Source: Candidatus Desulfaltia bathyphila (GTDB taxonomy: Bacteria; Desulfobacterota; Desulfobacteria; Desulfobacterales; ETH-SRB1). From it: DNA of 61,728 bases. A program made the translations under genes and the position numbers. The notes under the pieces are model-generated. The model saw only the letters and a program-made list of their open reading frames with translations, did not search any database and had not been told where the DNA came from. This document shows, in pieces, positions 51,883 to 52,830 of this stretch (positions within the stretch are counted from its first letter, which is position 1; each line of letters opens with the position of its first letter). The DNA lies in the NCBI GenBank assembly GCA_014381545.1, contig JACNLL010000024.1, positions 1 to 61,728 on the forward strand. The letters run 5' to 3'.

Positions 51883-52830
51883 ATGGAAGAATCAAGAATA
51901 ATATCACGAAGAAACTTTTTGAAGGGCAGCACTGGTGTCGTTGGGGCCGGAGCCCTGGCGGTCGGCCTTGGTGTGGGCTCCCTTGTCAGCCCAGGCACAG
52001 CCATAGCCAAGGCAAAGGAACTCCCATATCCGTTTGCAAGACCTACGCGGAAGAAACTAATGGATATTGATATGGTCTCAAAAATTACTTACGAAGGATA
52101 CTTTGGGAAAAAACCCGACGGAAGCAAACTCCCCGGCGGAGGCTGAATGTACGCAGTTGCTTCCGGGTTGATTGAAGCAATGAAAGCAATAATGCCTAAT
52201 AGTGGCGCTGGCAGCGAATGGTACAAAATACCAGCCCAGATATTTTCCTTTGGCGCTGGAGGCATTCAAATGTGGGGCACTCTCTGCGGTACTCTGACTG
52301 GTTGCTTATCTGTATTGAATATGATGAAACTGCACGGAAAACTGGGAAATGAGATTATGGGATGGTATAGTACAACTGAGTTTCCAACCGGAAATGTTTG
52401 GGATATATACAAAGAAGGTGGTTGGAAGCCACATTATACTCCAGTCCCAGACAACAAGGTGCTTGCTCATACGACATCTGATTCGCCACTATGCCACGTC
52501 TCGATCAGCAAATGGCTCTCCGAAGCAGGCATAAGTTACAACGATAAAGGCGAGCCTCCACACTCGGCGCCTTTAAAAAAAGACCGCTGCGCCAAAGTAG
52601 CCTCAGATACTGCTCGAAAGTGCGCCGAGCTTGTCAATGATTTTGTTCAGGGTAAGTTTAAAGCAACAGATTGGTTTGCAGGAACAGAGTCTAAAGGGTG
52701 TATAGACTGTCACTCTTATCGCGGGAAAAAGACAGCCGAAGAATCGCAGGAAAACACCCTCAGCCTGATGGACTGTCGTGGTTGCCATACTGAAGACGCC
52801 AAGATCGTGAGCAAAGATCATCCGGAATAA
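51883..52830 (+). CDS. Split-Soret cytochrome c / C-GCAxxG-C-C family protein, predicted selenoprotein (Sec at UGA 52144-52146)
   Basis: Tat motif SRRNFLK; two adjacent in-frame ORFs joined by GG-[TGA]-MY; TLCG, SPLCHVSIS, DRC; two C-terminal CxxCH. Confidence 0.85.
52157..52180 (+). promoter_or_regulatory. SECIS-like hairpin for split-Soret gene
   Basis: TTGCTTC-CGGGTTGATT-GAAGCAA, stem starts 10 nt after UGA. Confidence 0.65.

Follow-up and report, generated by a model that had tools for sequence, protein, structure and literature searches.

A probable selenocysteine-containing relative of split-Soret cytochrome c, interrupted by an in-frame TGA codon, in Candidatus Desulfaltia bathyphila

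Split-Soret cytochromes and C-GCAxxG-C-C selenoproteins

In Desulfovibrio desulfuricans ATCC 27774, split-Soret cytochrome c (Ssc) is a protein with a twin-arginine translocation (Tat) leader, an N-terminal domain containing four cysteines (Cys) and a C-terminal di-haem part with two CxxCH motifs. Its structure (PDB 1H21) is the only one solved among the relatives of the protein described here, which is encoded in a 61,728-nucleotide stretch of DNA from Candidatus Desulfaltia bathyphila (contig JACNLL010000024.1 of assembly GCA_014381545.1, positions 1 to 61,728; hereafter, the window). The gene, at window positions 51883-52830, shares the build of Ssc but has an in-frame TGA codon in place of the first of the four Cys. 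Judged from sequence, and with a probability of about 0.9, it is a single gene for a periplasmic protein that contains selenocysteine (Sec, or U).

The window protein also shares a Pfam domain with the C-GCAxxG-C-C selenoproteins (PF09719/TIGR01909), in which Sec likewise replaces a conserved Cys and a bacterial selenocysteine insertion sequence (bSECIS) hairpin is present. These proteins are found mainly in anaerobic Thermodesulfobacteriota, as here. They are listed as "form 1" and "form 2" (PMC9312934, PMC13188914), and form 1 was first reported in 2007 as a "putative redox protein" of the Olavius algarvensis delta-1 symbiont (PMC1976440). In the descriptions of the catalogue entries, no Sec motif is stated, and haem, cytochromes and Tat export go unmentioned. 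Relatives of the window protein carry the NCBI name "C-GCAxxG-C-C family (seleno)protein"; with the profile of the stand-alone subfamily, TIGR01909, the window protein scores 16.7 bits against a cut-off of 47.4. The gene is an additional, mis-annotated member of a selenoprotein family catalogued since 2007 and no new kind, and the di-haem, Tat-exported architecture of such selenoproteins has possibly not been spelt out in the literature. A literature search returned no paper combining "split-Soret" and "selenocysteine", and the papers found to mention split-Soret cytochromes contain nothing on iron-centre ligands.

No function is known for split-Soret cytochromes or for the C-GCAxxG-C-C domain. 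Replacement of a metal- or cluster-binding Cys by Sec occurs in FdhA (a Mo/W ligand), in [NiFeSe] hydrogenase (a Ni ligand) and in HesB-like and VhuD/MvhD-type proteins. The window protein resembles these in having Sec at a putative metal-binding Cys and in the interconversion of Sec and Cys during evolution, but the folds are unrelated, and ligation of Fe by Se is here something that we only infer.

Gene and protein architecture

The list of open reading frames (ORFs) in the window breaks the gene at TGA 52144-52146 into products of 87 and 227 amino acids in one and the same frame, as the initial annotation had said, and gene callers split the coding sequence likewise in every database entry. 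The elements on which that annotation had drawn (Tat leader, in-frame TGA, hairpin, remaining Cys residues and two CxxCH motifs) are all in place. Positions are collected in Table 1. With its own ribosome-binding-like sequence and a terminator-like hairpin downstream, the gene looks monocistronic.

The leader contains SRRNFLKG, which conforms to the pattern S/T-R-R-x-F-L-K and is followed by a hydrophobic stretch. It scores 25.4 bits with Pfam TAT_signal (PF10518; cut-off 22.7) and 21.7 bits with TIGR01409 (cut-off 16.7), and R9, R10 and F12 are invariant in an alignment of 21 sequences (alignment A1). A putative cleavage site is placed from the AxA motif. The translocase is available, since TatC is encoded in the genome (252 bits). 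Downstream, PF09719 matches with 31 bits, above its gathering cut-off of 27, and its four Cys occur in the expected order as U88, C135, C204 and C236; all four columns are invariant in the same alignment, the first being occupied by Sec here.

The sequence matches 1H21 with an E value of 9e-17 over residues 85-308, and the same four residues align with the four Cys of the structure. The NCBIfam profile for split-Soret cytochrome c (NF047622) matches residues 7-311 and thus spans the TGA. Identity to Ssc is about 25%, and the NF047622 score of 92.9 bits lies far below the equivalog cut-off of 400; the window protein is therefore not an Ssc orthologue. By these comparisons, it is a distant paralogue or orthologue-group sibling of Ssc with the same build. 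It differs in having Sec for the first Cys and in an insertion of 20-30 residues (the region of GKKPDGSKLPGGG and WKPHYTPVPDNKV). An AlphaFold model built from 21 sequences has a mean predicted local distance difference test score (pLDDT) of 66 and a predicted TM-score (pTM) of 0.71. With this model as query, 1h21_A was the sole significant PDB match in Foldseek (E 2e-7; TM 0.63 on the target), so leader, four-Cys domain, two CxxCH motifs and modelled fold are all those of a split-Soret protein. Profile, alignment and structure matches thus agree with the initial description of a Tat-targeted, split-Soret-type di-haem protein.

Cysteine or TGA at codon 88

A search of 5.8 billion proteins returned 323 relatives, of which the best 120 were examined. 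Among these, 92 are uninterrupted and have Cys at the aligned site (for example, YFQGG-C-MHGAASGL), whereas 23 begin exactly one residue past it (MNGAASGL..., MYSAASGL...). Of the latter, 22 appear to be TGA forms truncated by gene callers, and one (P0023) is a Cys form ended by a contig edge. DNA was fetched for nine of the truncated-looking clusters, and further TGA forms came from a scan of species-representative genomes. Wherever the contig reaches far enough, the "truncated" genes are preceded by an ORF of 70-96 codons that ends in TGA directly before the Met. These upstream ORFs start with SRR(N/S/K)F(L/I/M), and Pfam TAT_signal flags them, weakly, in six of eight clusters.

Across all loci, codon 88 is TGA in 14 distinct sequences and TGC or TGT in 62, so the proposal that Sec occupies a conserved Cys of the C-GCAxxG-C-C site is borne out by an otherwise invariant Cys column. 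In the window, the local context reads GGG-U-MYAVASGL, and its counterpart in 1H21 is GFG-C-GFG. Assemblies made independently from other samples have this TGA too. In the species-representative genomes, Sec forms are rare, making up seven of the best 80 loci, and a degenerate DNA pattern for the Sec-form signature, run against genome contigs, gave three matches, all of them loci already known. No close orthologue series is available because just two of 60 relatives of the source genome have a homologue; both are Cys forms with 36-38% identity.

For annotation, the consequence is that the database records of the window gene, and of no fewer than 22 related clusters, show fragments of about 220-360 residues lacking the export signal and the first conserved Cys, and that joining the halves restores a complete exported cytochrome. 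Because selenoprotein lists have included the family from 2007 onwards, the gain is incremental.

One of the Cys-form loci has a doubtful label. A 3.3-kb contig with a split-Soret-like gene (L041, JBLNEM010000041.1) is labelled as a metagenome-assembled genome (MAG), "MAG: Mycobacterium leprae", and the tree places its gene with that of an uncultured environmental bacterium; the contig is probably mis-binned or mislabelled.

The hairpin downstream of the UGA codon

The 5ʹ arm of the hairpin begins 9 nt past the UGA, and the apical loop is G-rich. The published bSECIS model (PMC13188914, Fig. 2) allows a stem of 4-16 bp, G in the first two loop positions, a spacing of 16-37 nt and a minimum free energy (MFE) of -7.5 or lower. 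The window hairpin falls within it, with a stem of 8 bp, a spacing of 17-19 nt and an MFE of -8.8 kcal/mol (nt +10 to +48 after the UGA). In the RNAfold structure, a G-U pair closes the 10-nt loop and leaves GGUUGA as an apical loop of 6 nt; if this pair is not counted, the loop exceeds the limit by 1 nt.

The hairpin is associated with the TGA forms. A stem of 6 bp or more, free of interruptions and with its loop starting at +19 to +26, is found in all 14 TGA forms (6-8 bp) and in six of the 62 Cys forms (Fisher p = 5.6e-11). Among 12 aligned Sec forms, pairing in register is seen in 81% of cells, compared with 29-50% if the register is shifted, and three of seven stem pairs show compensatory double changes. 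The independent Sec form of Thermincola has a different hairpin at the same place (CAGAAGC-GUU-GCUUCUG). Several relatives have the loop GGUCU, which we take to be similar to the SECIS loop of E. coli fdhF. Many Cys forms have Q, D, L or T where most Sec forms have E.

Several observations speak against selenocysteine insertion into a split-Soret-type protein. Over the 67 nt that follow the UGA, folding is energetically no more favourable than in shuffled sequences (z = 0.27), and synonymous-codon shuffles of the hairpin region miss significance (stem p 0.02-0.26). The 14 Sec sequences represent about three to four clades, so the Fisher p overstates their independence, and the structure model is of moderate quality only. 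The outcome of the synonymous shuffles is explained by the conserved peptide AASGL(I/M)EA, whose codons form the stem arms; the presence of the stem in Sec versus Cys forms and the count of covarying pairs were therefore used instead. A comparison of folding energies between Sec and Cys forms gave no better than p = 0.02 and is confounded by GC content, and an Rfam scan of 51500-53200 (E up to 10) produced chance matches to miRNAs and sRNAs and no SECIS family. The SECIS-like hairpin noticed at first sight was thus located, and its significance comes from the Sec/Cys comparison and not from folding energy.

Sec machinery and other readings of the TGA

The source genome (2.07 Mb, 97% complete) has the complete machinery for Sec insertion, all above curated cut-offs: selA (607 bits), selB (374), selD (376) and tRNA-Sec (76). 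The machinery on which the initial annotation made its reading depend is therefore present.

Taken as a true stop, the TGA would mark either a pseudogene, formed by nonsense mutation of TGC or TGT, or a pair of products, an 87-amino-acid Tat-leader peptide and a 227-amino-acid protein started at ATG 52147. The split made by gene callers agrees with such a stop, and GGAGG (52138-52142) lies 4 nt upstream of the second ATG. However, the TGA and the hairpin are common to 14 distinct sequences from several phyla, and the upstream part is conserved. The two closest relatives share 77% and 75% identity. Measured against both, the ratio of nonsynonymous to synonymous substitution rates (dN/dS) is 0.20-0.25 for the upstream 87 codons; measured against the closer one (77%), it is 0.31 for the downstream 227 codons. 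By these ratios, purifying selection acts on both halves of the gene. The GGAGG is mere Gly-Gly-Gly codons and is absent in relatives, which have AAAGGG, GGCGGC or GGTGGG. A leaderless C-terminal part would have no export for haem attachment and would be without the first invariant Cys, and the genome has no second PF09719 gene. A true stop is very improbable. An independent start at ATG 52147, which the initial annotation had raised against itself, is rejected in view of the unconserved GGAGG, the upstream dN/dS and the Met at this site in 28 of the 62 Cys forms.

The TGA could also be read through as something other than Sec: as Trp, Cys or Gly by a near-cognate tRNA, under an altered code, or as TGC or TGT if it were a sequencing or assembly error. 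UGA is the leakiest of the stop codons, and nothing specific was found for such read-through. Against it stand the complete Sec machinery, the association of the hairpin with TGA forms and the same TGA in assemblies of independent origin. An altered genetic code is rejected: TGA ends 13 of the 37 long ORFs in the window, and there is therefore no general reassignment. Read-through by any of these routes is the least credible explanation, and selenocysteine remains by far the preferred reading.

In-frame TGA codons were also noticed elsewhere in this genome. The selD gene (contig C41:20533-21459, locus L113; TIGR00476, 376 bits) holds one, and SelD itself appears to be a selenoprotein in this organism. 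In the window, the stretch 43275-43694 (+), read with TGA as U, matches DUF1573 (PF07610) with 59.6 bits and is a second UGA-interrupted gene of the window; a DUF1573 homologue with 42.6% identity also lies near a Sec-form split-Soret gene in another locus (L022).

Evolution of the Sec/Cys site

In a maximum-likelihood tree of 76 sequences, the window sequence belongs to an all-Sec clade of four (support 100/100), together with a Desulfobacterales MAG and two sequences from metagenomes. Nine Sec forms and one Cys form make up a second clade, whose members include Thermodesulfobacteriota and one Thermodesulfovibrionales sequence, and the single Sec form of Thermincola ferriacetica is placed inside a Bacillota clade that otherwise has Cys only. 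At least three to four exchanges between Sec and Cys are required on this tree, all at position 88, while the other three Cys of the motif never change. Repeated swapping of selenium at one of four invariant Cys marks the position as chemically critical and offers an experimental handle.

Other features of the family were also noticed. Throughout alignment A1, an invariant twin-arginine leader coexists with c-type haem motifs. The Tat system exports folded proteins, and c-type haem motifs are normally matured on unfolded substrates of the Sec secretion pathway. In one subclade, mostly of Sec forms, the second haem motif is followed by an extra C-terminal domain of about 120 residues (...RFNIYAPGKVF...FTVS) with no Pfam annotation. 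A gene of the TatA/B/E type is found near Sec-form split-Soret-like genes in two separate subclades (L023:5267-5524, L024:3522-3779, L025:2523-2726 and L106:3672-4004), which suggests a dedicated Tat component for these proteins.

Genomic neighbourhood

Divergently transcribed from the selenoprotein gene is a block (46520-51291, minus strand) that encodes a Rieske protein, a cytochrome b and two multihaem cytochromes; beyond it lie an exported rhodanese and a LysR-type regulator (Table 1). Among these neighbours, two-domain rhodaneses recur in relatives, where homologues directly adjoin the split-Soret-like gene in three loci (L039, L055, which is a Sec form, and L056). In L056, a Cys-form relative, a homologous multihaem cytochrome is also alongside, and the Sec form of L022 is adjoined by a single-domain rhodanese and TauE. 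LysR homologues occur within 4 kb of the homologous gene in nine other loci.

Elsewhere, the neighbours vary. Six Bacillota loci have a NapC/NirT-type tetrahaem cytochrome, which in the cluster representative (L061) follows the gene directly; L039 has a seventh NapC/NirT ORF, more divergent and on the upstream side. Sulfur transporters of the YeeE/YedE type are encoded in six loci, and ResB with CcsA follow the gene in 12-14 spirochaete loci. Other loci have regulators or unrelated genes only.

Table 1. Coordinates of the gene, its elements and its neighbours (window positions, except where a locus is named)
Feature	Position	Strand	Details
Predicted complete selenoprotein coding sequence	51883..52830	+	315 codons plus TAA (52828-52830); U = codon 88; start ATG 51883
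Shine-Dalgarno-like AAGGAGG	51867..51873	+	9 nt upstream of ATG 51883; read from the sequence
Tat signal peptide, residues 1-42	51883..52008	+	SRRNFLKG ... AIA / KA; PF10518 and TIGR01409 matches
C-GCAxxG-C-C domain (PF09719)	52135..52629	+	homologue of the "novel iron centre" domain at the N-terminus of split-Soret cytochrome c
U88 codon, UGA predicted to be read as Sec	52144..52146	+	first Cys of the C-GCAxxG-C-C motif; aligned with invariant Cys
bSECIS-type hairpin	52156..52181	+	8-bp stem 52156-52163 / 52174-52181; arms GUUGCUUC / GAAGCAAU, loop CGGGUUGAUU
Conserved Cys135	52285-52287	+	WGTLCGTLTG
Conserved Cys204	52492-52494	+	SPLCH
Conserved Cys236	52588-52590	+	DRCAK
Haem c binding motif 1, CIDCH (C273-H277)	52699..52713	+	invariant in 21-sequence alignment
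Haem c binding motif 2, CRGCH (C298-H302)	52774..52788	+	invariant in 21-sequence alignment
Terminator-like hairpin	52920..52962	+	GGGAGCC ... GGCTCCC, then T run
Rieske [2Fe-2S] protein	50890..51291	-	first gene of divergent operon; PF00355, 42 bits
Cytochrome b	49995..50885	-	PF00033, 58.6 bits
Two multihaem c-type cytochromes (607 aa, 562 aa)	46520..49998	-	Cytochrome_C7/c3 matches
Exported two-domain rhodanese	45385..46464	+	signal peptide; active-site loop CQRGCR; PF00581, 126 bits
LysR-type regulator	44141..45061	+	
Extra C-terminal domain carriers (other loci)	L022:6001-7086; L106:1469-2503; L107:1001-2077; L030:4001-5242		

Proposed maturation and function

If the gene is expressed as predicted, a complex of SelB, GTP and Sec-tRNA(Sec) would bind the hairpin and insert Sec, giving a precursor of 315 residues. 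Its N-terminal C-GCAxxG-C-C domain would fold and load a non-haem iron centre in the cytoplasm; in D. desulfuricans Ssc, the four Cys presumably hold a non-haem centre of the [2Fe-2S] type. The folded protein would then be exported by the Tat system through its twin-arginine leader, and the two c-type haems would be attached afterwards, outside the membrane, at CIDCH and CRGCH. As the first of four invariant Cys, Sec88 would lie in or at a non-haem redox site wired to the two haems. The weakest step is the next one, in which the protein would form the electron-accepting or substrate-facing end of a quinol-fed periplasmic chain. The chain would run through the divergent Rieske/cytochrome b/multihaem module here and through the NapC/NirT-type cytochrome in Bacillota relatives, and the exported rhodanese would handle the sulfur or selenium species on which the protein acts.

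What the Sec residue does can be read in more than one way: it may help to bind the non-haem iron centre or may serve as a catalytic nucleophile. In a pure electron carrier, which would shuttle electrons among periplasmic partners as assumed for the Desulfovibrio split-Soret cytochrome c, Sec would be one of four ligands of the iron centre and would tune its potential or stability, with no selenium substrate chemistry. The four Cys positions, none of which varies, align with the four Cys of 1H21, a structure whose title names a "novel iron centre"; no partner enzyme conserved across the loci was found, and split-Soret cytochromes are described as low-potential periplasmic carriers (PMC8359318, PMC4215793). 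However, Sec replaces Cys mostly at reactive redox or metal-substrate sites (PMC1976440, as a general statement), the exchanges on the tree single out one Cys position and never touch the other three, and the NapC/NirT-type quinol dehydrogenases that adjoin the gene in Bacillota resemble reductase pairs. A pure carrier role is a serious contender, at somewhat less than an even chance.

The neighbouring genes of the window, namely the exported rhodanese, the Rieske/cytochrome b/multihaem module and the LysR-type regulator, give a hint of sulfur or selenium chemistry. A periplasmic redox module that is fed by quinol and acts on sulfur or selenium species is proposed tentatively and is roughly level with the pure electron-carrier role. 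The genes around relatives are of mixed kinds (regulators, ResB/CcsA, ars genes), and the link to sulfur or selenium is therefore weak; split-Soret mutants of D. alaskensis showed no phenotype in 12 energy conditions (PMC4215793). Both facts count against the proposed module.

For a catalytic role of Sec, as suggested in the initial annotation, the NapC/NirT-type quinol dehydrogenases, rhodaneses and sulfur transporters beside homologues lend weak support. In its most specific form, which we consider unlikely, Sec88 would either ligate the iron centre directly as a selenolate or be a reactive residue at that centre, which would be catalytic and not a relay. Two stacked haems, supplied with electrons by the Rieske/cytochrome b/multihaem module, would feed a selenium-containing Fe-S-type site at which a chalcogen from the rhodanese (persulfide or polysulfide, thiosulfate, or selenium) is reduced or transferred. 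If true, this would be the first function assigned to split-Soret and C-GCAxxG-C-C proteins.

Further features of the window and of related loci

The spacer of 590 bp between the Rieske gene and the selenoprotein gene contains a GC-rich element at about 51340-51480 with inverted ends (cattgcgaggcac ... gtcgctcgcaatgacg), which looks like a miniature repeat. Homologues of another block of the window (39414-42443) are found within 4 kb of Cys-form relatives in L066, L080, L088 and L104, which belong to Spirochaetota, Ignavibacteriota, Bacteroidota and one unclassified MAG. Downstream of the selenoprotein gene, 53001-53381 (-) holds an ORF of 126 amino acids with a signal-peptide-like N-terminus, a body rich in Gly and Arg, two PNYVD(Q/A)(N/D)GDGICDN repeats and no Pfam match. 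At 55255-56054 (-), a zeta-toxin/AAA_33-like ORF of 192 amino acids (PF06414, 40 bits) overlaps by 4 nt a downstream ORF of 74 amino acids (55255-55479), and the two are possibly a toxin-antitoxin pair.

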